This document shows positions 17,861-52,250 of a stretch of DNA of 56,723 bases, piece by piece. The stretch is taken from NCBI GenBank assembly GCA_042576165.1, contig JBHPBZ010000002.1, positions 1-56,723 of the forward strand, written 5' to 3'. The notes beneath the pieces are model-generated. The model made no database searches and was not told where the DNA came from. It saw only the letters and a program-made list of their open reading frames with translations. The stretch's first letter is position 1. Each line of letters begins with the position of its first letter. The position numbers and the translations under genes are program-made. The stretch comes from Candidatus Babelota bacterium (lineage in GTDB: Bacteria > Babelota > Babeliae > Babelales > UASB340).

Positions 17861-18030
17861 TTATAATATAAAACCACTCTAAATTCCCATTCCAACGTTT
17901 TTCTAGTTTTAATTTATCAGAATAATTTGTATAAAGAAATAGTTGCCACAATAATCTAATTAATTTTTTATTTGTTGTTTATCATATGGCTTCAAAATTA
18001 CGCATCGCTTTAACTTTGGGAGAAAGAAAT

Positions 18031-18114
18031 ATGAAAACTATTCTTATCGCTCGCGTAAACACAGAATAACAGAAAGAAGCGGGCAACTCGCTACGAGCTA
18101 CAAAAATCTTTTGA
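18031..18114 (+). pseudogene. remnant of a serine recombinase N-terminus
   Basis: A GGGAGAAAG RBS is followed by MKTILIARVNTE*QKEAGNSLRATKIF*. This resembles M..aiYaRVSTeeQ...G.SL..Q, but Asn replaces the catalytic Ser and there is an in-frame TAA. Confidence 0.35.
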
Positions 18115-18145
18115 TTTGATAGTAAAAAATGGGGATCGTAAACTA

Positions 18146-18253
18146 TGGCGGTACTTAGTTGACACATTCAGGAATGGTGAAATTGAATTTGAAGCAAAAT
18201 TAAACAATATAAAAACGCTATATTCAACATTTGGAATAGAATTAGAAATTTAG
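18146..18253 (+). repeat. decayed coding repeat, copy 3 (WRYLVDTFRNGEIEFEAKL... tail)
   Basis: The W-R-x-L-V-D-x-F-R-N peptide is shared with copies 1 and 2 and read in a + frame ending at TAG 18251. It lies directly downstream of the recombinase remnant. Confidence 0.5.
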
Positions 18254-18295
18254 TTTTTTTATATACCCCAAACCACTCTGTTTAAAATCATATCA

Positions 18296-18324
18296 TTGAC
18301 AACACGATTAAATGTTCTTACAAT
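18296..18324 (+). promoter_or_regulatory. consensus sigma-70-type promoter TTGACA-17 nt-TACAAT
   Basis: TTGACA at 18296..18301, an exact 17-nt spacer, TACAAT at 18319..18324. The site is enclosed by an 11-bp inverted repeat, CTCTGTTTAAA (18276..18286) / TTTAAACAGAG (18342..18352). Confidence 0.45.
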
Positions 18325-18360
18325 TTCACACAATGTATCAATTTAAACAGAGGAAGAGTA

Positions 18361-18483
18361 ATGAACATCATCATAAATTTTAGTAATCAATACCTGATTA
18401 CCAAACTAAAGCATTGGGGAATAAGTTATAATGATGTCTCCCTTTGTTATCAAACAAGTTTGCTTGCACTAAAAAACAAATAA
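18361..18483 (+). CDS. possible 40-codon small ORF downstream of the consensus promoter
   Basis: GAGGAAGAG RBS 2 nt before the ATG. Product MNIIINFSNQYLITKLKHWGISYNDVSLCYQTSLLALKNK. It is too short to validate by eye. Confidence 0.25.
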   Translation: MNIIINFSNQYLITKLKHWGISYNDVSLCYQTSLLALKNK

Positions 18484-18719
18484 TCTTTTTTAGACATCTC
18501 ACATCCTAATATTGTTCCCCTAATTTTATTTATAGGTTTTTTCATATAAACCTCTCATAGATGTAATGTATTATACTCATGTTCTTTATGTCTACAAAAA
18601 GGTAGCAAGATTAGTTCATAAGAAGATATAACATCTAAGATACTATTATCATGAATAAATACATTTAGGAGATTTTTTTGTATTTCTGTTTTAAAATTTT
18701 CTTGATTTTTATTTTTTAA

Positions 18720-19274
18720 TTATTTGGGCCATCCATCCGAATCTTCAAAAAGGCAATTATAAACTCTAACATCCTCTTTTCTAAGTTCTAAAGAAATCCC
18801 TTTCGTTTTTATTAATAATATTTCATCATCCAAAAAAGTTATATTTTTTGCTTGAAGGTGTTTTTTTAATTTATCACCGTATTTTGCATGTTTAGGTTTA
18901 AATGGAAGACAGCTACTAAATACTTTTACTTCTCCATCTACTAGTCTATATTGAAGATAATTAATAATTGAATATGGAGCTATAACTGAAATATGTGTTA
19001 ATAACAAGTCAGCATAACCTTTTTCCTTTAGATAAGCATCAAATTCATTTGAATAAAAGCTTGCATTTATTGGTGATAAATTTAAATACATTGTAAAACA
19101 AACCGAATAATTAAAATCTGTTTCATTATAAGAATACTTTTCTGGAAACCAATCATTAAATGATTTCACCCAAAACTTATTTGGTACATAGTTCCATATA
19201 GCATATTTACAATCTCCATGTTTATATATTTGTTCTATATCTAACATAACTTTGTTTTTAATATTATTATTCAT
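18720..19274 (-). CDS. immunity-like protein, cassette 2 (paralogue of 19976..20533)
   Basis: 184 aa, starting 12 nt after the toxin-like ORF. It shares long identical blocks with its paralogue (YKHGDCKYAIWNY, TDFNYSVCFTMYLNLSP, DVRVYNCLF). Confidence 0.6.
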   Translation of the reverse strand: MNNNIKNKVMLDIEQIYKHGDCKYAIWNYVPNKFWVKSFNDWFPEKYSYNETDFNYSVCFTMYLNLSPINASFYSNEFDAYLKEKGYADLLLTHISVIAPYSIINYLQYRLVDGEVKVFSSCLPFKPKHAKYGDKLKKHLQAKNITFLDDEILLIKTKGISLELRKEDVRVYNCLFEDSDGWPK

Positions 19275-19286
19275 TTTATCTCTCGC

Positions 19287-19568
19287 TTATTGAGAATAAT
19301 TTGGATATCCATGAATATATCCTTTTTCATCTATATGAACTTTTATTTTTAAATTTCCTTTAGTATATGTTTTCACAGTGGGATTTCCTGTAGGCTTACC
19401 CTTTAACCATCCTTCTTGTGTTAATTTTACACCATTTTCATTTGTAGGCCACAATGATTTTTTAGGGTTGAAATTATTATGCCCTGGAATGTGTTTACCT
19501 TGTTTTCCTGCATCAACAGGAGGAGCCCCTGGCACTTGACCAGAATCAACTATACCCTGATTTGGCAA
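19287..19568 (-). CDS. Ntox50-like polymorphic-toxin C-terminal domain, cassette 2 (orphan module)
   Basis: DAGKQGKHIPGHNNFNPKKS...KVHIDEKGYIHGYPNY. The start in the ORF track is a TTG. The frame stays open upstream to 19796 with no ATG, and further upstream there are in-frame TAA stops at 19797..19799 and 19923..19925. Confidence 0.55.
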   Translation of the reverse strand: MPNQGIVDSGQVPGAPPVDAGKQGKHIPGHNNFNPKKSLWPTNENGVKLTQEGWLKGKPTGNPTVKTYTKGNLKIKVHIDEKGYIHGYPNYSQ

Positions 19569-19975
19569 CTTATCATTATCTGATTGAAGTTGTTTAATTG
19601 TATTTTTTTTATTTTTTTTCTTGTTTAATTCTTTTCCATTTTTATCGCATTTTTCAATATCAGTTTTATCTGATTTTTTGTTATTATGTTTATCATTAGT
19701 AGGATTTTTTTGTATTTCCGCTTCAGACTTATCTTGATTTAGATTTAAATCATAAATAAAATAAATTTTATTTTCTTCAAGTCTGCGATCTACTCCTTAA
19801 TCAGAAAGTTCTGGAAAATTTTTAAAGAAATATAATCTGTCTAGATCTTCTCGAGTTGCTTTGCTTTTGCGAACTTTATCTTGAAGAAATTCAATATATT
19901 GTTGTCTAATATCTGCATTTCTTTAGTCTTGTGCAAGACTAATAAACAATGATTTACTAACTCTAAAATAATTAA

Positions 19976-20533
19976 TTATTTTGGCCAAGTATCAGAATCA
20001 TCAAAAAGACAATTATAAACTCTAACGTCTTTGGTTCTGTTTTCTAAACTTATTTCATCATCAACCTTGGCAAATAATATATCATCTTCCAAGCAAGTTA
20101 TACACCTGTCTTGAAGGTGTCTTTTTAATTTATTACCATATTTTGCATGTACAGGTTTAAATGGAGTATAACTATCAAATAATTTTGTATTATTATCTAT
20201 AAATCGATATTGAAGATATTTAACAACTGCATATGGGGCTACAACTGAAATATCTGCTAATAATAAGTCAAGAACGCCATTGGTTATTACATAATTCCTA
20301 AATTCTTTTGTGCCGATTTGATATTTTGTAGGAGATAAATTTAAATACATTGTAAAACAAACAGAATAATTAAAATCAGTTGCATTATAAGAATAGATAT
20401 CAGGAAACCAATCCTTAAATGGTTGAATCCAAAAACCTCTTGGAATATAATTCCATATTGCATATTTGCAATCTCCATGTTTATAGATCATTTCTACGTC
20501 TGAAATTACGGTAGTTTTTTTTGGGTCATTCAT
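19976..20533 (-). CDS. immunity-like protein, cassette 1
   Basis: 185 aa, with a GGAG RBS, starting 9 nt after the toxin-like ORF. Paralogue of 18720..19274. Confidence 0.6.
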   Translation of the reverse strand: MNDPKKTTVISDVEMIYKHGDCKYAIWNYIPRGFWIQPFKDWFPDIYSYNATDFNYSVCFTMYLNLSPTKYQIGTKEFRNYVITNGVLDLLLADISVVAPYAVVKYLQYRFIDNNTKLFDSYTPFKPVHAKYGNKLKRHLQDRCITCLEDDILFAKVDDEISLENRTKDVRVYNCLFDDSDTWPK

Positions 20534-20542
20534 TTTAATCTC

Positions 20543-20830
20543 CTATATTTTTAAAGGATAATTTGGATAACCATGAATACATCCTTGCTTGTCAATATGA
20601 ACTTTAATATCTAGATTATTCTTTGTATATGTTTTAACGGTAATTTTTTTTGTTGGCTCACCATTCATCCATGCTTCTTGTGTTAATTCTATACCATTTT
20701 CACCTGCAGGCCATAATGATTTTTTAGGGTTGCAATTATTATGACCTGGAATATGTTTACCTTGTTTTCCTGCATCAACAGGAGGAGCATCCGGTATTTT
20801 TCCCGCAGTAACTAATCCTTGATTTGGCAA
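20543..20830 (-). CDS. Ntox50-like polymorphic-toxin C-terminal domain, cassette 1
   Basis: DAGKQGKHIPGHNNCNPKKS...KVHIDKQGCIHGYPNY. 68 of 91 aligned residues are identical to cassette 2 by manual count. It begins at a TTG in a frame offset by one nucleotide from the upstream signal-peptide ORF. Confidence 0.55.
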   Translation of the reverse strand: MPNQGLVTAGKIPDAPPVDAGKQGKHIPGHNNCNPKKSLWPAGENGIELTQEAWMNGEPTKKITVKTYTKNNLDIKVHIDKQGCIHGYPNYPLKI

Positions 20831-21063
20831 TTTATCATTGGAGTTTTAACAAATTCAATACAAAATTTTTCATCATCAAGTTTTTTTAATTTCAAACCTA
20901 AAACTTCATCGCCAATTTTTAAGTTTTCTACACACTTATAATCGTTTATTGATTCTCCAGTTTTGATTAGAGTTCCCGTAATTATATTTGGAAAAATTGT
21001 GTTTAGATTTAAAAGAGTTAAAAATAATGTAAAAAAAATAAAATTTATTTTTTGGGTTTTCAT
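20812..21063 (-). CDS. signal peptide + short Hint-like stub (probable decayed N-terminus of the toxin gene)
   Basis: MKTQKINFIFFTLFLTLLNLN signal peptide, then GTLIKTGESINDYKCVENLKIGDEVLG, resembling the Hint pattern GT.V.t..G....i..l.vGD.Vl but lacking the first Cys. It overlaps the toxin ORF by 19 nt in another frame. Confidence 0.4.
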   Translation of the reverse strand: MKTQKINFIFFTLFLTLLNLNTIFPNIITGTLIKTGESINDYKCVENLKIGDEVLGLKLKKLDDEKFCIEFVKTPMINCQIKD

Positions 21064-21146
21064 TGAGTTCCAGACATTAAATATCTTTTTTATAGGAAAT
21101 ACTTTAACTATATTTAATTTTGTATCTTTGTAATTTAAAACAAAGG

Positions 21147-21497
21147 ATTTATGATAAAAAAATGAAAAGTGTTATTGAAAATGATATCATTCCTTACTTT
21201 AAAATGAATCAATATAGTAGAGGTATCTATGAAGGAACACATGGCATTATTACATGTGTGACAAAAAAAGTCTCATGGCTTGAGTTTTACAAGTGGCATA
21301 TCCTTATATGCTTACTTATCATTTTTCTTAGTCTTGCAACCATTTCTTGTTTTCGATCAGGCAAAAAAAGTTGGGGGTGGGTATTATTTACATTAATAGG
21401 CCTTCTTTTTATTTTTCTATGGAAAATAGGTGGTAGATCATCAGATAATTTTGGAGGAGGCTCGTCATCTGGTGGTGGAGCAAGCGGTAAATGGTAA
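21147..21497 (+). pseudogene. duplicated 3' fragment of the TPM-domain gene (direct repeat of 12434..12784)
   Basis: The translated tail YDKKMKSVIENDIIPYFKMNQYSRG...GGGSSSGGGASGKW differs from residues of 11993..12784 at 9 of 115 positions by manual count. There is no TPM domain upstream. Confidence 0.85.
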
Positions 21498-43394: not shown

Positions 43395-44360
43395 CTATTT
43401 TGATTTATTAAAAATCTCTTTTATTGTTGAAAGCGATCCCATAAGTGCACTCGATTCATAAGGCATCAAAATTAATTTTCCATCTTTACCTTTTGTGATC
43501 TCAGGCAAAATTTTAATATAATTTAATGCAACCATATAAGGAAGAGGATCTGCACTTGGAACAGCAGCTTGAATATAACCAATAGCTTCTGCTTCAGCAT
43601 TAGCAGTAATCAAACGAGACTTAGCCTCACCTTCAGCTTTTGTAATTTTTGCCATTTTTATACCTTCAGCTTCCAAAATAGCAGATCTTTTTTTACCTTC
43701 AGCTTCTAGTATCAAAGCACGACGATCACGCTCAGCTCTCATTTGTTTTTCCATTGCACTACGAATATCATGCGGAGGATTAATTTCTTGAAGTTCAACT
43801 CTGTTTATTTTCACACCCCATTTATCTGTAGCTTCGTCTAAAATTGCTTGCAATCTATCATTAATCTGATCTCTAGAAACTAAAGTTCCATCCAAATCCA
43901 TCGAACCAATAACATTACGCAAAGTAGTTTGTGTCAATTTTTCTATTGCTTGAGGTAAATTTGTAACCTCATACATAGCGCGCATAGGATCTGTAACTTG
44001 ATAATAAAGCAAAGCATTAATTTCTATCGTTACATTATCTTTTGTTATAACATTTTGTTTAGGAAAATCATAAACAGATTCACGTAAATCAATTCTTTCT
44101 ACTTGTTCTGAATAGCGATACACTCTTTTGCCATAACCTTCTTCTTTTACAAAAGTCCAAGTTATTGTTCTAGGATGATCTAAAAAAGGAACAATAAAGT
44201 GTATTCCTGGTTTTAAAATTTTATTAAACTTACCCAGTCGTTCTATCATTATGACTTCAGATTGTCTTATAATGTAAGTTGATTTAACTAAAACTGTTAT
44301 AAAAAATAAAATTAAAAATACAAAAAAGATGGAAAACCCGCCCATAATTCCAGATATCAT
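43395..44360 (-). CDS. SPFH/band-7 (stomatin-like) membrane protein
   Basis: N-terminal TM, then the SPFH core (ERLGKF...LKPGIHFIVPF...VITKDNV.) and a C-terminal Ala/Glu-rich coiled coil (RALILEAEGKKRSAILEAEG). Confidence 0.9.
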   Translation of the reverse strand: MISGIMGGFSIFFVFLILFFITVLVKSTYIIRQSEVIMIERLGKFNKILKPGIHFIVPFLDHPRTITWTFVKEEGYGKRVYRYSEQVERIDLRESVYDFPKQNVITKDNVTIEINALLYYQVTDPMRAMYEVTNLPQAIEKLTQTTLRNVIGSMDLDGTLVSRDQINDRLQAILDEATDKWGVKINRVELQEINPPHDIRSAMEKQMRAERDRRALILEAEGKKRSAILEAEGIKMAKITKAEGEAKSRLITANAEAEAIGYIQAAVPSADPLPYMVALNYIKILPEITKGKDGKLILMPYESSALMGSLSTIKEIFNKSK

Positions 44361-44390
44361 ATCAAAACTCCCAAAGTAAAATAAAAATTA

Positions 44391-44843
44391 TTAAGATTTG
44401 CTTTTAACCACTAGTCTATTACCTTTAACATTCACTACTAAAACTTCAGTTCCTTTTTGTAAAATTACATTATCAGCACATTCTGCCATCCATCTTTCAC
44501 CACGAACTTTTACATATCCAAACGCATTTGATTCTATTGTTTTTACAACCATACATTTTTTACCAATTAATGCATCAACATTAGTATCTGTAGTAACTCC
44601 AGAAATTTTGGCAGCAAAAAAATGTTTCAAAATAAAGAATGAAACAATCGTAAAACAAAAACCAACAATACACTGGCTAATAAAAGATAGTCCAAAAAAA
44701 GCTAAAATTGCAGCCATACAACATCCGCAAGAAAATGCTATAAAACAAAATAATCCAGATAATATCATTTCAATAAAAAGAAATACTATTGCTAAAATAA
44801 GCCAAAAATATATTAAATAAATTGAATCAAATAAAAATAACAT
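44391..44843 (-). CDS. NfeD-family membrane protein (stomatin operon partner)
   Basis: About three N-terminal TM helices plus a C-terminal OB-like segment (GKKCMVVKTIESNAFGYVKVRGERWMAECADNVILQKGTEVLVVNVKGNRLVV). It lies upstream of the SPFH gene, as in ybbJ-ybbK-type operons. Confidence 0.75.
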   Translation of the reverse strand: MLFLFDSIYLIYFWLILAIVFLFIEMILSGLFCFIAFSCGCCMAAILAFFGLSFISQCIVGFCFTIVSFFILKHFFAAKISGVTTDTNVDALIGKKCMVVKTIESNAFGYVKVRGERWMAECADNVILQKGTEVLVVNVKGNRLVVKSKS

Positions 44844-44873
44844 AGAATAAAATCCTCTAATTTCAGATATTTT

Positions 44874-45566
44874 TTATTTCCCCGCAAAACTATTATGCCT
44901 CAAAAACCCCATACTTTCAACCAAGGCATAAATCAAAGACCTCCATTGATCTTCTTTACAAATTCCTAATTCTATAGCCAATGCGGGCGCAATAATACCA
45001 CAGAGTGGTTTAAATGGAATACCAAATAATCCATAAAAATCAAATGACTTTTGATTAATATCAGATGTTAATGACTGCTTCATATCCTCACCCCAAAGTC
45101 TTGTTGTTTTAATATTTGCAAAATGAGCATTATGTACTGCAACAAAAGAATATGGGACAAAGTTATGAGGAGCAAGATCAATTAATGAATTATATAAGAG
45201 ATGATATAAAAAGACCTTAGGCTTTAAAACTTCCTCTCTGTAAACATGAAGACTTAAATAAAAATCAACACCTAAACGATTTGAAAAAGAAGCTGATTCC
45301 CAATCAACAATTTCTTCGCCGGGATAACGAGTCAAAATAACCCTTACATTATATTGTTCTTGCAACGCCTTTTTTAAACTTTTTGCAAAATCAAAAGTTA
45401 TCGCACGCTCCACACTTTCTACCAAACGGCGACCAACATTTTTTGCATGTCCCGCAGGATTAATCATAACAACGAATTGCTTTTCTTGAGATGTCTTATT
45501 TGAAAATAAAAAATTAAAAGAAAATAATGTTATAAATATAAAATTCGGATTTAATTTAAAAGCCAT
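44874..45566 (-). CDS. divergent N-acetylmuramoyl-L-alanine amidase (Amidase_3-like)
   Basis: Signal peptide, then VVMINPAGHAKNVGRR...VILTRYPGE......SFSNRLGVDFYLSLHVY, which parallels iviDpGHGG.d.Ga...v.lTR..d....l..R...aN...adlfiSiH. Confidence 0.55.
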   Translation of the reverse strand: MAFKLNPNFIFITLFSFNFLFSNKTSQEKQFVVMINPAGHAKNVGRRLVESVERAITFDFAKSLKKALQEQYNVRVILTRYPGEEIVDWESASFSNRLGVDFYLSLHVYREEVLKPKVFLYHLLYNSLIDLAPHNFVPYSFVAVHNAHFANIKTTRLWGEDMKQSLTSDINQKSFDFYGLFGIPFKPLCGIIAPALAIELGICKEDQWRSLIYALVESMGFLRHNSFAGK

Positions 45567-45574
45567 AGCCTACT

Positions 45575-45637
45575 AATTTATAAAAATCGTGTAGTATATT
45601 TTTTTACATAAAATATACTACACGATTTTTATAAATT
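45575..45637. terminator. 28-bp perfect-stem hairpin between the WD40 gene and the amidase gene
   Basis: AATTTATAAAAATCGTGTAGTATATTTT / TTTACAT / AAAATATACTACACGATTTTTATAAATT. It lies 9 nt upstream of the amidase start and 92 nt downstream of the WD40 gene stop, on the minus strand. Confidence 0.55.
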
Positions 45638-45729
45638 TTAAAAATAAAAGCATTTAAATCTTTTATAAATACTCTTTAAAATCAAATAAATCTCTTACTA
45701 TACTCCCTATTCTTTTTTTAAAAAACGTC

Positions 45730-47700
45730 CTAAACATAAATATATCCATCTAAAATAATTTCAGCCCCACCCAAAACACAAATTTTTGCGTCGGACTCAA
45801 TTCCATTTTTTAAATCACTAAAAACAATTGAATTCGACAAAGCTTGAGTTTGCAAATCAGGACCAAAATTTGAACGGTACAACATTAAATTTTCTTCTCC
45901 TGTCGAATCACTTCCACCAATTGCCAAAAATCTACCATCTGAACTCCAGTCGACTGAATAAAGATAACTACCATAATCTAGAGAAATAACCCACTTTAAA
46001 CTTGATCCATTAAATGAATACACTTGTAACTCTTTTCCACTAGTTGGCGAATCTCCACCAATTGCCAAAAATCTACCATCTGGACTCCAGTCAACTGAAT
46101 GAATATAATCTCCATAAGCCATTGAATCAATCCAACCTAAACTTGATCCATTAAATGAATATACTTGTAGTTCATCTCCACTAGTTGGCAAATTTCCCCC
46201 AATTGCCAAAAACCTTCCATCTGGACTCCAGGAAACTGAATAAATAAAAGATCCATAATTCTCTTCAGCAACTTTTACCAAACTTGATCCATTAAATGAA
46301 TACACTTTTAACTCAGCTCCAGTTCCTGAATCATATCCACCAATTGCCAAAAATCTACCATCCGGACTCCAGTCAACTGAATAAACCCTACTTCCGCAAT
46401 CCTTCTCAAGGACCAAACTCAAACTTGATCCATCAAATGAACACACGCGCAACTCATTTGCAATTCCTGTATCTTCTCCCCCAATTGCCAAAAATCTACC
46501 ATCCGGACTCCATGAAACTGATTCAATCCAAATTCCATAATTATTTGAATCAACCAGTACTAATCTTGATCCATCAAATGAATACACTCTTAGGTCGGCA
46601 TCATTTGTTGGGAAAAATCCACCAATTGCCAAAAATCTTCCATCTGGACTCCATGAAACTGACTCAATCCACTCTGCATAATTCTCTGAATCAACAAGTA
46701 CTAAACTTGATCCATCAAATGAATATACTCTTAATTCATTTCCAATTACTGGCTCATTTCCACCAAAAGCCAAAAATCTACCGTCCGGACTCCATGAAAC
46801 TGAATAAATACTATCTATACCATCGTTAGAAAAAGTCTCTGTTACATCACTTAATGTTAAAGTTGCTGCACTTGTAATTGTAACTTTGTTATCAAAATAA
46901 ACTTTACCTTTGGTTAGTTGAAAACCAGTATATGTAGATTTAACCGTGCAACAATTAAAATGAAGTGCTGAAGTTTCATCTAACATTTTAATTAAAGTAG
47001 AATCTGTAGTTGATGGTCTAAAATCAAAAGCCGTTCCTTCATCAAAAAACAGCGTTGCATGTGGAGCAATATAACTAGGCCTTACTCCCCAATAAACAAA
47101 TTCCGATGAACCAGTAAACACCACATCATTATGAATAAAGAATTGTCCGCTATAAAAATAAAAATCATCATTTAATGCTAGTTCAACATTATCAAGTGCC
47201 AACTTTCCGTCCCAACCGATACACCTTATTGCAGGACGCCCAATGGTATTTGCAGTATTACGAAAATTTAAATTTCTCAGCGTTAATGTTGAATTTGCAT
47301 CAACTAAAAGCTGTGCTGTATAACCCAGTGTTAAACTATTTCCATTTCCATCAATAATAATATTTCCACTTAAATACCATGTTTCGCCAGCAGGAATTTC
47401 AAGATTATCTTCCAATACCAATGAATGTGAATTTCCTAAAACCTTATTATTATTAAAATCTAAGTGACTATTTTTTGTTAAAATTAAATCTTCATTTAAT
47501 GTTAAATCATTTTCTAGTGTTGTATTCCCATCCAACCTTCCTATAAATTTTTGTGAACTAGATATACTCTCTAGAACAAATGTTGAATTTTGTGTTACAT
47601 GTAAATTTGAATATTTAGAAGAATCTAAAGAACAAATAGCCGAAGTAAATATCATAGATAAAAAAACCATTGTTGTTTTTATGTATAAAAAAATCCTCAT
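45730..47700 (-). CDS. secreted protein: N-terminal beta-helix-like region + seven WD40-like blades
   Basis: Signal peptide. ~290 aa rich in N/T/L with L.L.N..F.N-type turns. Then seven ~44-aa units carrying (S/D)WSPDGRFLAIGG....(E/D)L.VYSF(D/N)GSSL. Confidence 0.85.
   Translation of the reverse strand: MRIFLYIKTTMVFLSMIFTSAICSLDSSKYSNLHVTQNSTFVLESISSSQKFIGRLDGNTTLENDLTLNEDLILTKNSHLDFNNNKVLGNSHSLVLEDNLEIPAGETWYLSGNIIIDGNGNSLTLGYTAQLLVDANSTLTLRNLNFRNTANTIGRPAIRCIGWDGKLALDNVELALNDDFYFYSGQFFIHNDVVFTGSSEFVYWGVRPSYIAPHATLFFDEGTAFDFRPSTTDSTLIKMLDETSALHFNCCTVKSTYTGFQLTKGKVYFDNKVTITSAATLTLSDVTETFSNDGIDSIYSVSWSPDGRFLAFGGNEPVIGNELRVYSFDGSSLVLVDSENYAEWIESVSWSPDGRFLAIGGFFPTNDADLRVYSFDGSRLVLVDSNNYGIWIESVSWSPDGRFLAIGGEDTGIANELRVCSFDGSSLSLVLEKDCGSRVYSVDWSPDGRFLAIGGYDSGTGAELKVYSFNGSSLVKVAEENYGSFIYSVSWSPDGRFLAIGGNLPTSGDELQVYSFNGSSLGWIDSMAYGDYIHSVDWSPDGRFLAIGGDSPTSGKELQVYSFNGSSLKWVISLDYGSYLYSVDWSSDGRFLAIGGSDSTGEENLMLYRSNFGPDLQTQALSNSIVFSDLKNGIESDAKICVLGGAEIILDGYIYV
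45880..46820 (-). repeat. seven tandem ~132-bp coding repeats (WD40 blades) with long near-identical DNA blocks
   Basis: Recurring CCAATTGCCAAAAATCTACCATC(C/T)GGACTCCA strings on the + strand at ~132-bp spacing. Confidence 0.85.
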
Positions 47701-48183
47701 ATCTCTCCCTTTTCATTATAAAATTAATAAATAGCACTCTCTAAAAAAATTATTTTATATAAAACAAATCCTATAACTATTTAACTTAAGTTATGACCTA
47801 TTAAATTTGTAAAAAATGAATCTCCATAGCAAGCTCTTATTTGTTATTATAAACAATGAAATAAAAAATAAGGATAAGCTCTAGGAAATAAATATTATTG
47901 TAACATATCGTGTGTATGTTATTAAATTAAGTTGTTAGAACAAGTTGATAATTTTGTATTTAACAGCAAAGTAAAAATGTCAAATTCAAAAATAACAACA
48001 ATAGAAATAACCGAGAGAATATTTTTGGTAGGCAATTAAGAAAAATAAAATTTTTTTTAATAGAACACAATTATATAAAAAATACTTTAAGCAAAAGCAA
48101 ATTTAATAGAAAATTACATCCGTACCAAAGTATGTTTGGCTAATTGATTTTTAATATTGAGCTGAAACATTTAAAGAAAAAAA

Positions 48184-49398
48184 TTATTTGAAATAAAATA
48201 TTTCATGTCTCTTGATCACAAATTCTTTTAATCTTTTTAAAAACCTATCCTCTGTTTTAAATTCTTTGGTATCTGCAAATAAGTAACTATGGTTAATAAA
48301 ACCTACCTTACATCTACCATCAATTCCACGAATAGAACGTTCTTTATAAGGGTAAGCCTTTAGTCTTGCATGAAAATACTCACCAACAGCCAAAAAATCT
48401 ACTAACGCTAAAAATGGAGGTACAAAAACAAAAGACTTATTTCTCTCTTCTTCATAAATATTAATTTTACAAATATGTAATTTAGATGAAATTTGCATTC
48501 TTGCAAATGAGCATCCCGAAAGATCAACACTTCCAAAATTAGCATCATTCCATGAATCAAATATAATTCCACCAAACAACCTCGTTCCAAAGGAATCAGA
48601 TTCATTAGCAACAATGTTTTTTGGTTTCCAATTATCAGATGCTCTGTAAATTATCCATTTTTGATTTTTATATGCTTTAAGTTCATTGGCAATTAAAGTT
48701 GAAAAATTGGTTGATAGAAAAACATTTTTTTTGAATTTCACCGCAGTCTTTGTAATTAAATAAGGCATAAGCTCATGTTCTATAGTTGATTGCGAATTTT
48801 TATCATTTTTTATCATAAGAATTATTTCATCAACTAAAGTTTTAACTACTGATCGACAATGTGACTTGGGAAAAGCAATTCTATTTTCTATAAAGTATTT
48901 TACTATCCCCTCATTTAATAAAAAATGCATTTTTTTCACATCATCATTATTATTTAGTTCATTTACATGATCCTTATATTTTTTATAATTCCATGTATCC
49001 ATTTTCATAATATCTTCATAAGCAAATCTTATATTCCACATTAGATCCAAAATCTCGTTATTTTCTTCATTTTTATTCTTCGAATTTTGTAAATAACATC
49101 TGAGAAAAAATAAACCATACAAAGTTGGTGCAATAAATAAAGTCCTTACTCCACTTGGCAATTGTTTTTTTATTAAAAATTCTTCATGCTTATCTAGATT
49201 TATATCATCAAAATTCTGAGACATAGGATACGCATATTTTGTTAAAACAAAAAAACAATTTTCATGTTCTTTTTCTGAAATCAACTCAACTTTATCTTTA
49301 TTTTGTTTATAAAAAATGTACTCGGCAAAAACCAAGTTTTTTGAACAAACCAATAATAAAAGTGAAAATAAAATTTTTTTTGAAATACTTTTCAACAC
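48184..49398 (-). CDS. hypothetical secreted protein
   Basis: 404-aa ORF with a GTG start and signal peptide KKILFSLLLLVCSKNLVFA. No recognisable motif. Confidence 0.6.
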   Translation of the reverse strand: MLKSISKKILFSLLLLVCSKNLVFAEYIFYKQNKDKVELISEKEHENCFFVLTKYAYPMSQNFDDINLDKHEEFLIKKQLPSGVRTLFIAPTLYGLFFLRCYLQNSKNKNEENNEILDLMWNIRFAYEDIMKMDTWNYKKYKDHVNELNNNDDVKKMHFLLNEGIVKYFIENRIAFPKSHCRSVVKTLVDEIILMIKNDKNSQSTIEHELMPYLITKTAVKFKKNVFLSTNFSTLIANELKAYKNQKWIIYRASDNWKPKNIVANESDSFGTRLFGGIIFDSWNDANFGSVDLSGCSFARMQISSKLHICKINIYEEERNKSFVFVPPFLALVDFLAVGEYFHARLKAYPYKERSIRGIDGRCKVGFINHSYLFADTKEFKTEDRFLKRLKEFVIKRHEIFYFK

Positions 49399-49649
49399 GT
49401 CATAACCTCTTTTTTTAATAAAAAAACTAACATCGTTTATATATTTAACATTAATGCAAATAGAAATTTTGTCAAAATTATATCAAAAAAGATAAATATG
49501 CTTGATGTATCAAGAATCATGCTTCAATTTTACACAAAACCACACTTTTCACCTAAAAGAATGTCCTCTTCCAAATTATTTGATATTTTTTAAAAAAAGT
49601 AATAGAAATTTACATTTAATAAAATTTTATAATCATTTAGGTATTCATT

Positions 49650-52250
49650 ATGAATTCATTTGAAGTCAGAAAAAAGTTTTTGAATTTCTTTAAAAAAAAT
49701 GGACATACAATAGTTACAAGTTCTTCATTAATTCCAGCACAAGACCCTACTCTTCTTTTTACAAACGCAGGAATGAATCAATTTAAAGATATTTTTTTAG
49801 GAAAAGAAAAACGAAAATATACACGAGCAACTAGTTCACAAAAATGTGTTCGTGCCGGAGGCAAGCACAATGATCTTAATGAAGTTGGTTTTACAAATAA
49901 ACATCTAACATTTTTTGAAATGTTGGGAAATTTTTCTTTTGGTGATTACTTCAAAGAACAAGCAATTAGTTATGCATGGCAAGTATTAACAAATGAATTT
50001 AAATTTGATCCTAAAAAATTAGTCATAACTATTTATAAAAACGATGACCAAAGTCATGAAATTTGGAATAAAAAAATTAAAATTCCAAAAGAAAAAATCA
50101 TACGCCTAGGAAAAAAAGATAATTTTTGGCAAATGGGTAATACCGGACCCTGCGGACCATGTACCGAAATTCACTATGATTATGGAAAAGATATTGGATG
50201 TAAACAAAAAACATGTGATCCCTCTTGTAGCTGCAATCGATTTGTTGAATTATGGAACCTTGTATTTATGCAATATAATCGACAAAAAAATGGAGAACTA
50301 ATTAATTTAAAACAAACTGGCGTTGATACAGGAATGGGCCTAGAACGTATTACAATGGTTTTGCAAAAAAAAGATTCAATTTTTCATACCAATCTTTTTG
50401 AACCATTGATTAAAAAAATTGAAGAAATATCACAACTTAATTATCAAGAATCCATAGAAAAAATACAAACCGCCTTCCATGTTGTTTGCGATCACGCAAG
50501 ATCAAGCTCTCTTTTAATTGCAGATGGAGCAATCCCTTCAAATGAAGGCCGCGGATATGTTTTGAGAAAAATAATTAGACGCGCCGCACTTTTTACACAA
50601 AAAATAACACCTAATCCTAAACTATTTTTATCAGTTGCAAATGAATTTATTTGTTTTATGTCTCCAATCTTTCCTGAATTAAAAACTAATCGTGATTTCA
50701 TTTTAAAAACACTCGAAAATGAAATTGAAAAGTTTGCAACAAATCTTTTGCAAGGAAAAAATATTTTAGAAAAATATATCGAACAAACTTTATCAAAAAA
50801 AGAAAATATCTTATCCGGAAAACATATTTTTAAATTATATGATACCTATGGTTTCCCTACAGAAATAACACAAGTTATTGCAAAAGAAAAAAATCTTTCA
50901 TTAGATATTGATGGTTTTGAAATAGAAATGAAAAAACAACAAGAACAATCTGGAAAAAAAAGTCCAAAAGAAAAAACTGGACCACAAATTCCATCTGATA
51001 TTTCAACAACATTTATTGGGAATGAAAAATTAGAACTTGAAACGACAATAAACTTTATTTCAAAAGATGATTCAAAACTTTGGATATCAACTAAAGAATC
51101 TCCATTTTATGTAGAAAGCGGAGGGCAAGCTAGTGATAAAGGCTGGATTAAAATTAAAGATCAAACTTATCCAATAATATCTTTTACAAAATCAGATAAA
51201 AATACTAATCCCGCAATTGCAATACAAATAAAATGTACCGAAAATATAAAAATTGGAGATAAAATAAAATGCATTGTTGATTCTTATTCTCGAATTAATA
51301 CTGAAAAAAATCACACTGCAACACACATGTTACAAGCAGCATTAGTTCAAATCTTGGGACAACATATAAAGCAAGCAGGATCATTTGTAAATAATAAACA
51401 ACTTAGATTTGATTTTACACATATTAATGGATTAACAAAAAAAGAAATAGAAGAAATAGAAAATATTGTAAATATAAAAATACAAGAAGATATAAAACTA
51501 AAAATATTTTTAACAACACTAGAAAAAGCAAAAGAAGTTGGCGCAAAAGCATTTTTTGGTGAAAAATATAATCCAGAAGAGGTTAGAGTTGTACAAATAC
51601 CTGGATTTTCAGTAGAACTATGTGGAGGAACACATTTAAATAGCACAGGACAAATTGGATGTTTTAAAATTGAAAGTGAAATTGCACTTTCATCAGGCAT
51701 CAGAAGAATAACCGCAAAAACAGGACCCGAAGCCATAAGACTTTTTCAAAAAAGTTTTGATCTAACAAAAACTTTGGGAGACACTTTTAAAGTTAAAGCT
51801 GAAAGTATTTTTAGTTCTATACAAAAACAAACAAATGATTTAAATATTGCATTTAGCACAATAAAACGTCTTAGAAAACAATTATGGAAAAATCAAATTC
51901 CAACCTGGCAAAAACAGGTCTCTCTTACAGGTAAAGTTCCATTTATATTTTTAAATCTTGAAAATATAAAAAGTAATCAAGCAAAAGAAATTTTTGAAAA
52001 TATTCAAATAAAATCACCTGGTTTTTATTTTATGATTTGCATAAATCCTGAAAAACCCAATAACATAAATTTCTTTGCACATGTAAGCTCAAAGTGGCAA
52101 CCACAAATTAATTTAAAAGAGTTCTCCACATTTTTAAAAGATAAATTCGAATTTCGTGGTGGTGGCAGCAAACAAATGATTCAGGGTGGTGGAATAAAAA
52201 AAGAAGTTAATTATAAAACTGAAATAGAAAATTGGGTAAAGCAAATTTGA
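49650..52250 (+). CDS. alaS: alanine--tRNA ligase
   Basis: 866 aa. FTNAGMNQFK, RAGGKHNDL, FEMLGNFSFGDYFK, the editing-domain HTATHML and C..H, and the C-terminal GGG block. Confidence 0.97.
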   Translation: MNSFEVRKKFLNFFKKNGHTIVTSSSLIPAQDPTLLFTNAGMNQFKDIFLGKEKRKYTRATSSQKCVRAGGKHNDLNEVGFTNKHLTFFEMLGNFSFGDYFKEQAISYAWQVLTNEFKFDPKKLVITIYKNDDQSHEIWNKKIKIPKEKIIRLGKKDNFWQMGNTGPCGPCTEIHYDYGKDIGCKQKTCDPSCSCNRFVELWNLVFMQYNRQKNGELINLKQTGVDTGMGLERITMVLQKKDSIFHTNLFEPLIKKIEEISQLNYQESIEKIQTAFHVVCDHARSSSLLIADGAIPSNEGRGYVLRKIIRRAALFTQKITPNPKLFLSVANEFICFMSPIFPELKTNRDFILKTLENEIEKFATNLLQGKNILEKYIEQTLSKKENILSGKHIFKLYDTYGFPTEITQVIAKEKNLSLDIDGFEIEMKKQQEQSGKKSPKEKTGPQIPSDISTTFIGNEKLELETTINFISKDDSKLWISTKESPFYVESGGQASDKGWIKIKDQTYPIISFTKSDKNTNPAIAIQIKCTENIKIGDKIKCIVDSYSRINTEKNHTATHMLQAALVQILGQHIKQAGSFVNNKQLRFDFTHINGLTKKEIEEIENIVNIKIQEDIKLKIFLTTLEKAKEVGAKAFFGEKYNPEEVRVVQIPGFSVELCGGTHLNSTGQIGCFKIESEIALSSGIRRITAKTGPEAIRLFQKSFDLTKTLGDTFKVKAESIFSSIQKQTNDLNIAFSTIKRLRKQLWKNQIPTWQKQVSLTGKVPFIFLNLENIKSNQAKEIFENIQIKSPGFYFMICINPEKPNNINFFAHVSSKWQPQINLKEFSTFLKDKFEFRGGGSKQMIQGGGIKKEVNYKTEIENWVKQI

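Follow-up and report, generated by a model that had tools for sequence, protein, structure and literature searches.

The stretch analysed here, 56,723 nucleotides (nt) of contig JBHPBZ010000002.1 from a Candidatus Babelota bacterium (hereafter the window), has a G+C content of about 29% throughout and carries on its minus strand two consecutive cassettes, each of which joins a small toxin-like open reading frame (ORF) to a gene for a protein of 184 or 185 amino acids (aa). A preliminary description of this DNA had listed five minus-strand ORFs here as a partly decayed, duplicated toxin/immunity locus. The ORF list and the sequence agree with it on the positions of all five, on the gaps of 9 and 12 nt that separate the respective toxin stop codons from putative immunity genes 1 and 2, and on the GGAG that precedes the 185-aa ORF (Table 1). 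Its manual count of 68 identical residues among 91 aligned between the two small ORFs was matched exactly (BLASTP E 5e-52), and the two larger ORFs proved to be paralogues as well (62% identity, E 3e-86). At the DNA level, the locus repeats with a period of about 1256–1262 nt at 75–81% identity, a tandem-repeat similarity far beyond chance. Related loci and related proteins found in this analysis are labelled L0xx and P0xxx, respectively.

Table 1. Features of the locus in window coordinates; functional names are those of the interpretation developed in the text and are putative.
Feature	Position	Strand	Remarks
Stub of toxin gene 1	20812..21063	-	83 aa; predicted signal peptide and first ~50 residues of pretoxin-HINT
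Deletion/frameshift junction	20840..20850	-	GTTAAAACTCC; then AATGATAAATTG at 20839-20828
Toxin module 1, Ntox50-class	20543..20839	-	no internal stops; no in-frame signal peptide or evident start
Small ORF 1	20543..20830	-	95 aa, TTG
Immunity gene 1	19976..20533	-	185 aa, intact; ATG with GGAG 8 nt upstream
Linker remnant of toxin gene 2	19569..19922	-	in frame with toxin module 2
Toxin module 2, Ntox50-class orphan C-terminal domain	19287..19577	-	no internal stops
Small ORF 2	19287..19568	-	93 aa, TTG
Immunity gene 2	18720..19274	-	184 aa, intact
Possible 44-nt scar of a further linker copy	18671..18714	-	repeat family D8, 82% identity to 19703-19746

Both small ORFs fall within the Ntox50 family, to which they had been assigned on the basis of its motifs. 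Against PF15542, the second module scored 31.5 bits (E 3e-7) and the first 30.2 bits (E 8e-7), each above the gathering cut-off of 22.2 bits, with matches covering positions 2–64 of the 92 in the profile. A profile of the Babeliales toxin domain also finds the solved Neisseria MafB2 toxin (PDB 8HHJ_B, E 0.003), whose GxQGKHIxGHxN motif aligns with GKQGKHIPGHNN of the window; a search with the single window toxin sequence gave no similarity to any PDB chain. Module 1 shares 69–74% of its residues with the C-terminal ends of intact toxins from L001, L003, L005 and L007, module 2 is 70% identical to an orphan toxin in L005, and the same C-terminal toxin domain (CT) recurs at 50–57% identity in polymorphic toxins of the RHS type and in LXG polymorphic toxins of the Bacillus type VII secretion system (T7SS). 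Throughout this clade, residues K25, Q26, G27, K28, H29, G32, H33, K40, S41, T53, V80, H81, H89, G90, Y91 and P92 are invariant, and module 1 retains every family-invariant residue. The C-terminal motif of the clade is H-G-Y-P and not H-x-V-P; it was matched by eye to the VHIVP of MafB2, the Pfam alignment ending at position 64. Intact relatives scored 15–25 bits against PF15542, several of them below the cut-off (L001, 15; L003, 21; the RHS protein P0164, 19.6), and PF15542 gave no match to the clade members from L014 and from Bacillus (LXG). A word-index search with the 95-aa toxin returned five proteins and missed the intact toxins. The clade is best read as a divergent sub-clade of Ntox50, and one that appears to be systematically under-annotated by Pfam, because several of its intact members fall below the PF15542 cut-off and others are missed.

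Ntox50 has been described as an RNase of the BECR fold whose conserved residues are H, S, K, T, H and K, together with an HxVP motif; HINT is its typical processing protease, and no immunity family is listed for it (Zhang et al. 2012, PMC3482391). Furthermore, the Ntox50 domain of the YxiD C-terminus (YxiD-CTD) of B. subtilis 6633 is a tRNase neutralised by the Sm-like protein YxxD (PMC12700104). The window modules, which are basic (pI 9.2 and 9.7), are probably RNases as well and, by analogy with YxiD-CTD, tRNases. Neither module need ever have been a gene in its own right. The homology of the small ORFs to each other and to the intact toxins begins three codons 5' of each TTG (NDK-LPNQG), and since it runs upstream of both, the TTG codons look like inherited internal Leu codons of a longer ancestral gene and not like evident starts.

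The partner proteins of 184 and 185 aa had been thought possibly undescribed, and the profile, sequence and structure searches indeed led to no known family. The window proteins gave no sequence match in Pfam, NCBIfam, PADLOC or the PDB, searches of PHROGs and PADLOC yielded nothing significant, and 80 family members compared with Pfam produced no meaningful match, only isolated noise. With the 185-aa protein, a word-indexed search recovered 14 clusters, all at least 56% identical to it and one of them named (Candidatus Babeliales bacterium). Neither for the window protein looked up nor for P0159 did a search for an exact match return a record. An exhaustive profile search found 118 representative clusters at E <= 1e-3, including 60 at E <= 1e-10, nearly all of them 170–195 aa long. 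All named members, which come from Bacillus sonorensis, Paenibacillus campi, Clostridia, Leptonema illini and Babeliales, are annotated "hypothetical protein". Two apparent members that matched in multiple stretches (P0096 and P0103) were discarded as repeat artefacts unconfirmed by the A3 profile. An AlphaFold2 model based on an 80-sequence alignment predicts an alpha/beta protein (pLDDT 95.7, pTM 0.91), for which Foldseek found no significant neighbour in the PDB (best TipC2, E 0.058, TM-score 0.25), no match in BFVD and, among its matches, no YxxD-like or MafI2-like fold. Matches to Crl and CapZ had been obtained with a weak 14-sequence model (pLDDT 65) and were rejected after they were not reproduced with the good one. 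Likewise, no profile or fold similarity was found to known immunity families, namely Pfam Imm1–Imm74, SUKH, SMI1/KNR4, CdiI, the Sm-like YxxD and MafI2. On this evidence, the 184/185-aa proteins appear to constitute an uncurated and unnamed family. One metagenomic protein of 359 aa (P0069) carries the family domain at residues 194–358 fused to an unrelated N-terminal domain of ~190 aa and may be a two-domain "polyimmunity" protein.

An immunity role for this family had been proposed from the position of the two window genes, and the company that the family keeps elsewhere supports it. Loci were picked through the immunity family alone, and profiles for toxin and partner were afterwards run over their six-frame translations (the locus search with alignment A1 gave one genome locus and three metagenome loci). 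The CT lies directly upstream, on the same strand and within 170 nt, for 12 of the 14 family genes, in genomes of 28–56% GC. The delivery parts found upstream of the family are a signal peptide with HINT (Babeliales), a 2307-aa protein with a strong PT-HINT match (E 9e-24) and an RHS-type C-terminal core. In addition, the gene downstream of a Bacillus sonorensis LXG/T7SS toxin, which was found via its toxin domain, encodes 177 aa and scores E 5e-64 against the family profile. Pairing of the family with the toxin domain occurs in Bacillus, in a Leptonema genome and in several unclassified metagenome contigs. Because this gene order is kept across distant lineages and four types of toxin delivery, which is the kind of comparative evidence normally used to recognise an immunity protein, the comparison supports the 184/185-aa family as the cognate immunity protein of this CT. 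Pairwise identities of the toxins and of the immunity proteins also correlate (rho 0.83, confounded by shared ancestry), but we set this aside as evidence of co-evolution, since a common phylogeny explains it equally well. Family genes also occur alone, with no upstream toxin, in L012 and L017/L022, and in Leptonema (L010) an intact family gene stands beside a toxin fragment.

Several of these loci deserve mention in their own right. At L020:310-726, the toxin domain is split over two frames with an intact immunity gene downstream, and the toxin of the near-identical L021 is intact. The lone immunity gene of L017 (CAYVQB010000013.1), which is 60% identical to that of the window, is followed by a gene for a Sel1-repeat protein; this GTDB representative contig (L017, also L022) is labelled "uncultured Pseudomonadota bacterium" but has 31% G+C, and its taxonomic label may be wrong.

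Intact versions of the ancestral gene are found among related Babeliales. On their contigs, the 184/185-aa gene lies 2–10 nt past genes of 1105, 464, 470 or 239 aa, or of a 195-aa chimera, all of which terminate in the same toxin domain. The intact toxins of L007 and L003 consist of a signal peptide, a domain of ~140 aa ending in ...EEPHTFF...LMHNN, a charged linker and the toxin domain. This signal peptide/HINT/linker scaffold is shared, at 44–75% identity, by proteins with four unrelated C-termini (P0153/P0154, P0155/P0159, P0156/P0157 and P0158), of which P0153/P0154 carry the Ntox50 CT, and each scaffold toxin type is followed by its own small downstream gene. Since one N-terminal scaffold bears at least four different C-termini, the Babeliales scaffold proteins qualify as polymorphic toxins in the strict sense of Zhang et al. 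2012.

Between the two window cassettes lies what had been taken for a decayed spacer and is instead a toxin-linker remnant. Window positions 19296–19922 match residues 215–467 of the 470-aa L003 toxin in a single frame (tblastn, E ~1e-54), and residues 219–461 of the 464-aa L007 toxin likewise match the linker remnant together with module 2 (E ~1e-51); placing residues 215–467 of these proteins on this interval gave tblastn E values of 1e-52 to 1e-55. The spacer alone (19569–19922) corresponds to residues ~215–365 of these 464/470-aa proteins. Its decay is limited, because it holds one TAA in 118 codons, where the six-frame mean of 0.066 stops per codon would lead one to expect about eight. 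A second TAA directly upstream shuts the frame, no ATG, GTG or TTG occurs in the linker frame before 19568, and gene 2 has neither a signal peptide nor HINT. The 44-nt D8 repeat 3' of immunity gene 2 might weakly suggest another linker scar and may be a chance match in AT-rich DNA.

Two arrangements in relatives concern the same kind of array. At L005:2057-5134, a 907-aa protein with a weak C-terminal match to DUF4258 (E 9e-5, just below the cut-off) is followed by a 110-aa gene and then by an orphan Ntox50/immunity cassette, which together look like a main toxin that bears a different CT and is accompanied by orphan modules. The 195-aa chimera encoded at L003:5412-5999 (also L004:545-1132) belongs to the immunity family over residues 2–135 and to the C-terminal half of the toxin over residues 132–191, and is apparently a recombination product, in which a deletion within a window-like array joined immunity 1 to toxin 2.

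The 5' end of toxin gene 1 survives as the stub, which the preliminary description had taken for a signal peptide followed by a Hint-like fragment. By itself, the stub gave no Pfam match (it covers only the first ~50 residues of a ~135-aa domain), and its identity comes through a relative and the family profile. Its N-terminus, MKTQK followed by a hydrophobic core, reaches a Kyte-Doolittle peak of 2.0 over residues 7–20. The stub is 57% identical to the N-terminus of the Candidatus Dependentiae protein P0159, residues 40–174 of which match PT-HINT (PF07591) at E 9e-6 and 26.4 bits, below the cut-off of 27.7. Moreover, profile A7, in which the stub is included, matches a solved bacterial intein-like domain from end to end (PDB 2LWY, residues 8–144, E 1.3e-6), and the A7 N-terminal profile aligns with the strong PT-HINT region of L014 at an hhalign probability of 84.5%. 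On account of the P0159 identity and of the 2LWY and L014 profile matches, we read the stub as a signal peptide to which the first third of a pretoxin-HINT domain is still attached. The HN cleavage motif, which relatives keep as LMHNN or FVHNY, is gone from the window, and because the C-terminal HN part has been deleted, this HINT copy is predicted to be incapable of self-cleavage.

The junction itself is abrupt. HINT homology stops at ...VKTP, toxin-module homology sets in with the base that follows, 20839, and in another frame, the boundary of the D1 repeat also falls at 20839, and the stub terminates at a TAG in a frame differing from that of the toxin domain. A single out-of-frame deletion that removed the remaining HINT and the linker would explain both the shift in frame and the missing segments. 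Programmed frameshifting at this junction was considered and rejected: no slippery heptamer of the form X XXY YYZ lies between the in-frame TAA and the TAG of the stub, and a deletion suffices.

Taken together, both toxin genes appear to be disabled, the first by the out-of-frame deletion and the second by 5' truncation and stops. By contrast, both immunity genes have stayed intact and show purifying selection, with ratios of nonsynonymous to synonymous substitution (dN/dS) of 0.15–0.49 (0.22–0.49 for immunity 1 and 0.15–0.49 for immunity 2); the constraint on the window copies is no weaker than in intact relatives. Nor are the two cassettes the outcome of a recent tandem duplication, which was rejected. 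Immunity 1 has its closest match in L007 (75%) and immunity 2 in L005 (78%), and since each is closer to its counterpart in another genome than the two are to each other, the cassettes are more plausibly old, diverged alleles. The original view of a partly decayed and duplicated locus stands with two corrections, namely the age of the cassettes and the nature of the spacer.

Based upon these features, we consider it likely that the window preserves what is left of a polymorphic-toxin locus, namely two orphan CT/immunity cassettes whose main present role is immunity, and a history can be proposed for it. The ancestral toxin would have been a Sec-exported protein of ~460 aa, composed of a signal peptide, a pretoxin-HINT that autoproteolytically frees the C-terminus, a charged linker and an Ntox50-class BECR RNase of ~95 aa. 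An immunity gene 9–12 nt downstream would have supplied a product that binds and blocks the RNase inside the producer. Gene 1 would then have lost the C-terminal two-thirds of HINT and the entire linker, leaving the toxin domain out of frame, and gene 2 its 5' end, with stops arising in the linker remnant. Presumably, the cell no longer exports the window toxins. The immunity proteins, each with its own ribosome-binding site, would be kept for the protection they may give the cell against matching toxins of related bacteria that share its protist host or habitat. The toxin modules, now silent, would persist as orphan cassettes, which recombination, or in the case of gene 1 a one-base change, could reactivate. 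With regard to timing, inactivation of the toxins seems to be either recent or incomplete, because the domains lack internal stops and their dN/dS resembles that of intact toxins.

Several observations weigh against this reading. Firstly, the toxin domains are stop-free and their dN/dS (0.14–0.36; module 1, 0.19–0.33; module 2, 0.14–0.33) is no higher than among intact toxins. Secondly, gene 1 is one A insertion away from an open signal-peptide/toxin fusion: in silico, A4->A5 at 20844–20847 joins stub and toxin in a continuous 174-aa frame, and A4->A3 does not. Thirdly, translation may yet begin at the TTG codons, because a clear Shine-Dalgarno sequence precedes only 15 of the 37 window genes and its lack before the TTGs consequently says little. 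Fourthly, the window immunity proteins have a near-neutral pI (6.3 and 7.6), whereas the Bacillus homologue is strongly acidic (pI 4.4). Finally, in one RHS toxin the same CT is followed by an unrelated gene, which suggests that the CT clade is not tied to a single immunity family.

Whether the toxins were ever meant for other bacteria must also be considered, as the system could have served against the eukaryotic host or in the scavenging of nutrients, through a secreted RNase that breaks down host RNA, with the 185-aa protein as a barstar-like inhibitor for self-protection. A Sec-exported RNase needs an intracellular inhibitor whatever its target, the host-dependent, parasitic Dependentiae secrete hydrolases and nucleases in large numbers (PMC6561590), the window locus has a deoxynucleoside kinase gene in its vicinity, and eukaryote-like effector genes (UCH, ankyrin) neighbour the locus in relatives. 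We nonetheless regard a host-directed system as unlikely. A single N-terminal scaffold with several unrelated C-termini, each followed by its own small gene, argues against it, as do the orphan cassettes, the lone immunity genes and the two immunity alleles beside broken toxins, which are hallmarks of inter-bacterial conflict. Moreover, Zhang et al. 2012 (PMC3482391) recognise inter-bacterial conflict by the presence of immunity genes.

The near-open frame of gene 1 invites a different objection, namely that it still yields an active secreted mini-toxin, translated as one 174-aa ORF, and that the frameshift reflects an error in the assembly, or else a change in the length of the A4 run that is reversible or varies within the population. 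However, a 4-nt homopolymer is an atypical site for error or slippage, and the fused protein would still lack two-thirds of HINT, including the HN cleavage motif. The slippery site that might have bridged the frames is missing as well. This leaves the mini-toxin improbable, even with an immunity gene still immediately downstream and a stop-free toxin domain whose invariant residues and low dN/dS would suit a working enzyme.

Translation of the small ORFs from their TTGs as cytoplasmic toxins would turn the pairs into addiction modules of a toxin–antitoxin kind, which we hold to be very improbable. Both frames are open from TTG to stop in a genome where most genes lack strong Shine-Dalgarno motifs, and BECR RNases do occur in classical toxin–antitoxin systems (PMC3482391). 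Yet homology to exported toxins extends 5' of both TTGs (by the NDK residues and, in copy 2, by the entire linker), in relatives the domain is found only at the C-terminus of exported, T7SS or RHS proteins or as fragments, and a toxin-then-inhibitor order with variable N-termini is the pattern of polymorphic toxins. Lastly, that the 184/185-aa protein is an accessory factor (a chaperone, adaptor or export helper) and not an inhibitor is scarcely credible, for although its binding and neutralisation are inferred, its fold has no known relative and the window copies are not acidic, it accompanies the CT whatever the secretion route (Sec/HINT, RHS or LXG-T7SS), unlike a delivery-specific helper, it persists beside frameshifted or fragmentary toxins and alone, and it occupies the canonical immunity position immediately 3' of the toxin.

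The reading of the window as a reduced polymorphic-toxin locus also finds parallels among known systems. The maf islands typically carry alternative CT/immunity cassettes in tandem, and the CDI/Rhs orphan modules of Poole et al. 2011 are said to be a comparable arrangement. With the polymorphic toxins of Zhang et al. 2012 (PMC3482391), the locus and its relatives share a trafficking N-terminus, HINT, a variable CT and an immunity gene next downstream, together with tandem 5'-truncated cassettes that retain a part of the conserved sequence upstream, recombination chimeras (L003) and immunity genes that stand alone. In contrast to those systems, the main gene of the window is broken, the window holds no intact exporter of these CTs, and the host lineage is that of the Dependentiae, obligate protist parasites. 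The YxiD-CTD/YxxD pair (PMC12700104) resembles the window in its PF15542 toxin with conserved His and Lys, its C-terminal motif of the HxVP type (of which IHGYP in the window may be the counterpart), its directly downstream immunity gene and the existence of LXG/T7SS relatives of the window CT in Bacillus, but the window partner is an alpha/beta protein of ~185 aa that is unrelated to the Sm-like YxxD. The MafB2-CT2/MafI2 pair (PDB 8HHJ) likewise has an exported, signal-peptide-dependent toxin with an Ntox50-type CT, but the MafB N-terminus is DUF1020/MafB and not HINT, and the helical MafI2 has no relation to the 185-aa family.

The occurrence of such a locus in a small, seemingly host-dependent genome had been called unexpected, a judgement that is tempered here, since related Babeliales carry intact versions and amoeba endosymbionts offer precedents. 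Odyssella, Simkania and Rickettsia bellii keep toxins with immunity genes, which has been read as conflict among co-resident bacteria (PMC3482391). Like the window lineage, these are intracellular bacteria of protists that unusually keep immunity genes beside toxins; they differ in phylum, in toxin domain (URI, OTU) and in immunity family. Cultured Dependentiae live as parasites inside protists and possess components of the Sec and type II secretion machinery (PMC6561590, PMC4776705). Toxins are not mentioned in these two main Dependentiae genome papers, and a literature search found no paper joining "Dependentiae" with "polymorphic toxin". Pairs of toxin and immunity genes are otherwise rare in obligate intracellular bacteria.

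What is already known, therefore, comprises the system type, the toxin domain, HINT processing and the organisation in orphan cassettes. What is new is the immunity family, which is unnamed, has no relative recognisable by its fold and accompanies a divergent Ntox50 clade across phyla, together with the diversified HINT-scaffold toxins of Dependentiae. YxxD and MafI2, the solved Ntox50 immunity proteins, are unrelated to each other and to the 184/185-aa family. A third Ntox50 immunity family with 118 representative clusters and a confident predicted fold would be a target for structural and biochemical work, and would allow "hypothetical proteins" of Bacillus, Paenibacillus, Clostridia, Leptonema and Dependentiae to be annotated. 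The HINT toxins, orphan cassettes and kept immunity alleles of Babeliales suggest competition among these protist parasites. We put forward, tentatively and with some doubt, the fuller proposal that the 184/185-aa proteins are an undescribed immunity family whose fold is absent among solved structures and which partners a divergent Ntox50 clade from Bacillus T7SS/LXG to Dependentiae. Two alleles kept beside dead toxins would in that case show that obligately intracellular protist parasites both wage and resist RNase warfare against their own kin, within host cells or between them, as competition in superinfection.

When examining the surroundings of the locus, its chromosomal site is seen to vary between genomes. 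The housekeeping genes alaS, Band-7, NfeD and amidase are 51–81% identical to those of a metagenome-assembled genome (GCA_030630075.1), which, with the Candidatus Babeliales and Candidatus Dependentiae relatives of the 185-aa protein and of the stub, assigns the window to the Babeliales (Dependentiae/TM6). In L003, the toxin locus lies between alaS and amidase/NfeD/Band-7; the window locus adjoins a tRNA-Asp/Asn/Val cluster. In the window, the interval between alaS and amidase/NfeD/Band-7 (43404–52250) holds a WD40-repeat protein (656 aa, 45730–47700) and a 404-aa protein with no Pfam match (48184–49398), and is variable between genomes. An Rfam scan of the window found three tRNAs only, and promoter-like and terminator-like sites occurred at chance frequency in window scans. 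Past immunity gene 2, the ~860 nt at 17861–18719 contain no ORF longer than 61 aa and no Rfam match, and tblastn of all ORFs from related loci detected no remnants there; a terminator-like hairpin lies on the minus strand at 18101–18083. Between the toxin locus and the tRNA cluster, a 125-aa ORF with a TTG start (21120–21497, plus strand) matches only the last 40 positions of TPM-phosphatase, continues with a transmembrane segment and a Gly/Ser-rich tail, and may be a truncated gene. In relatives, genes for large proteins with a ubiquitin C-terminal hydrolase (UCH) domain and pentapeptide repeats lie just upstream of the toxin genes (L001:83-2608 and L005:1-2012) and, in L001, a gene for an ankyrin-repeat protein is also found near the toxin locus; such neighbours look like eukaryote-directed effectors.

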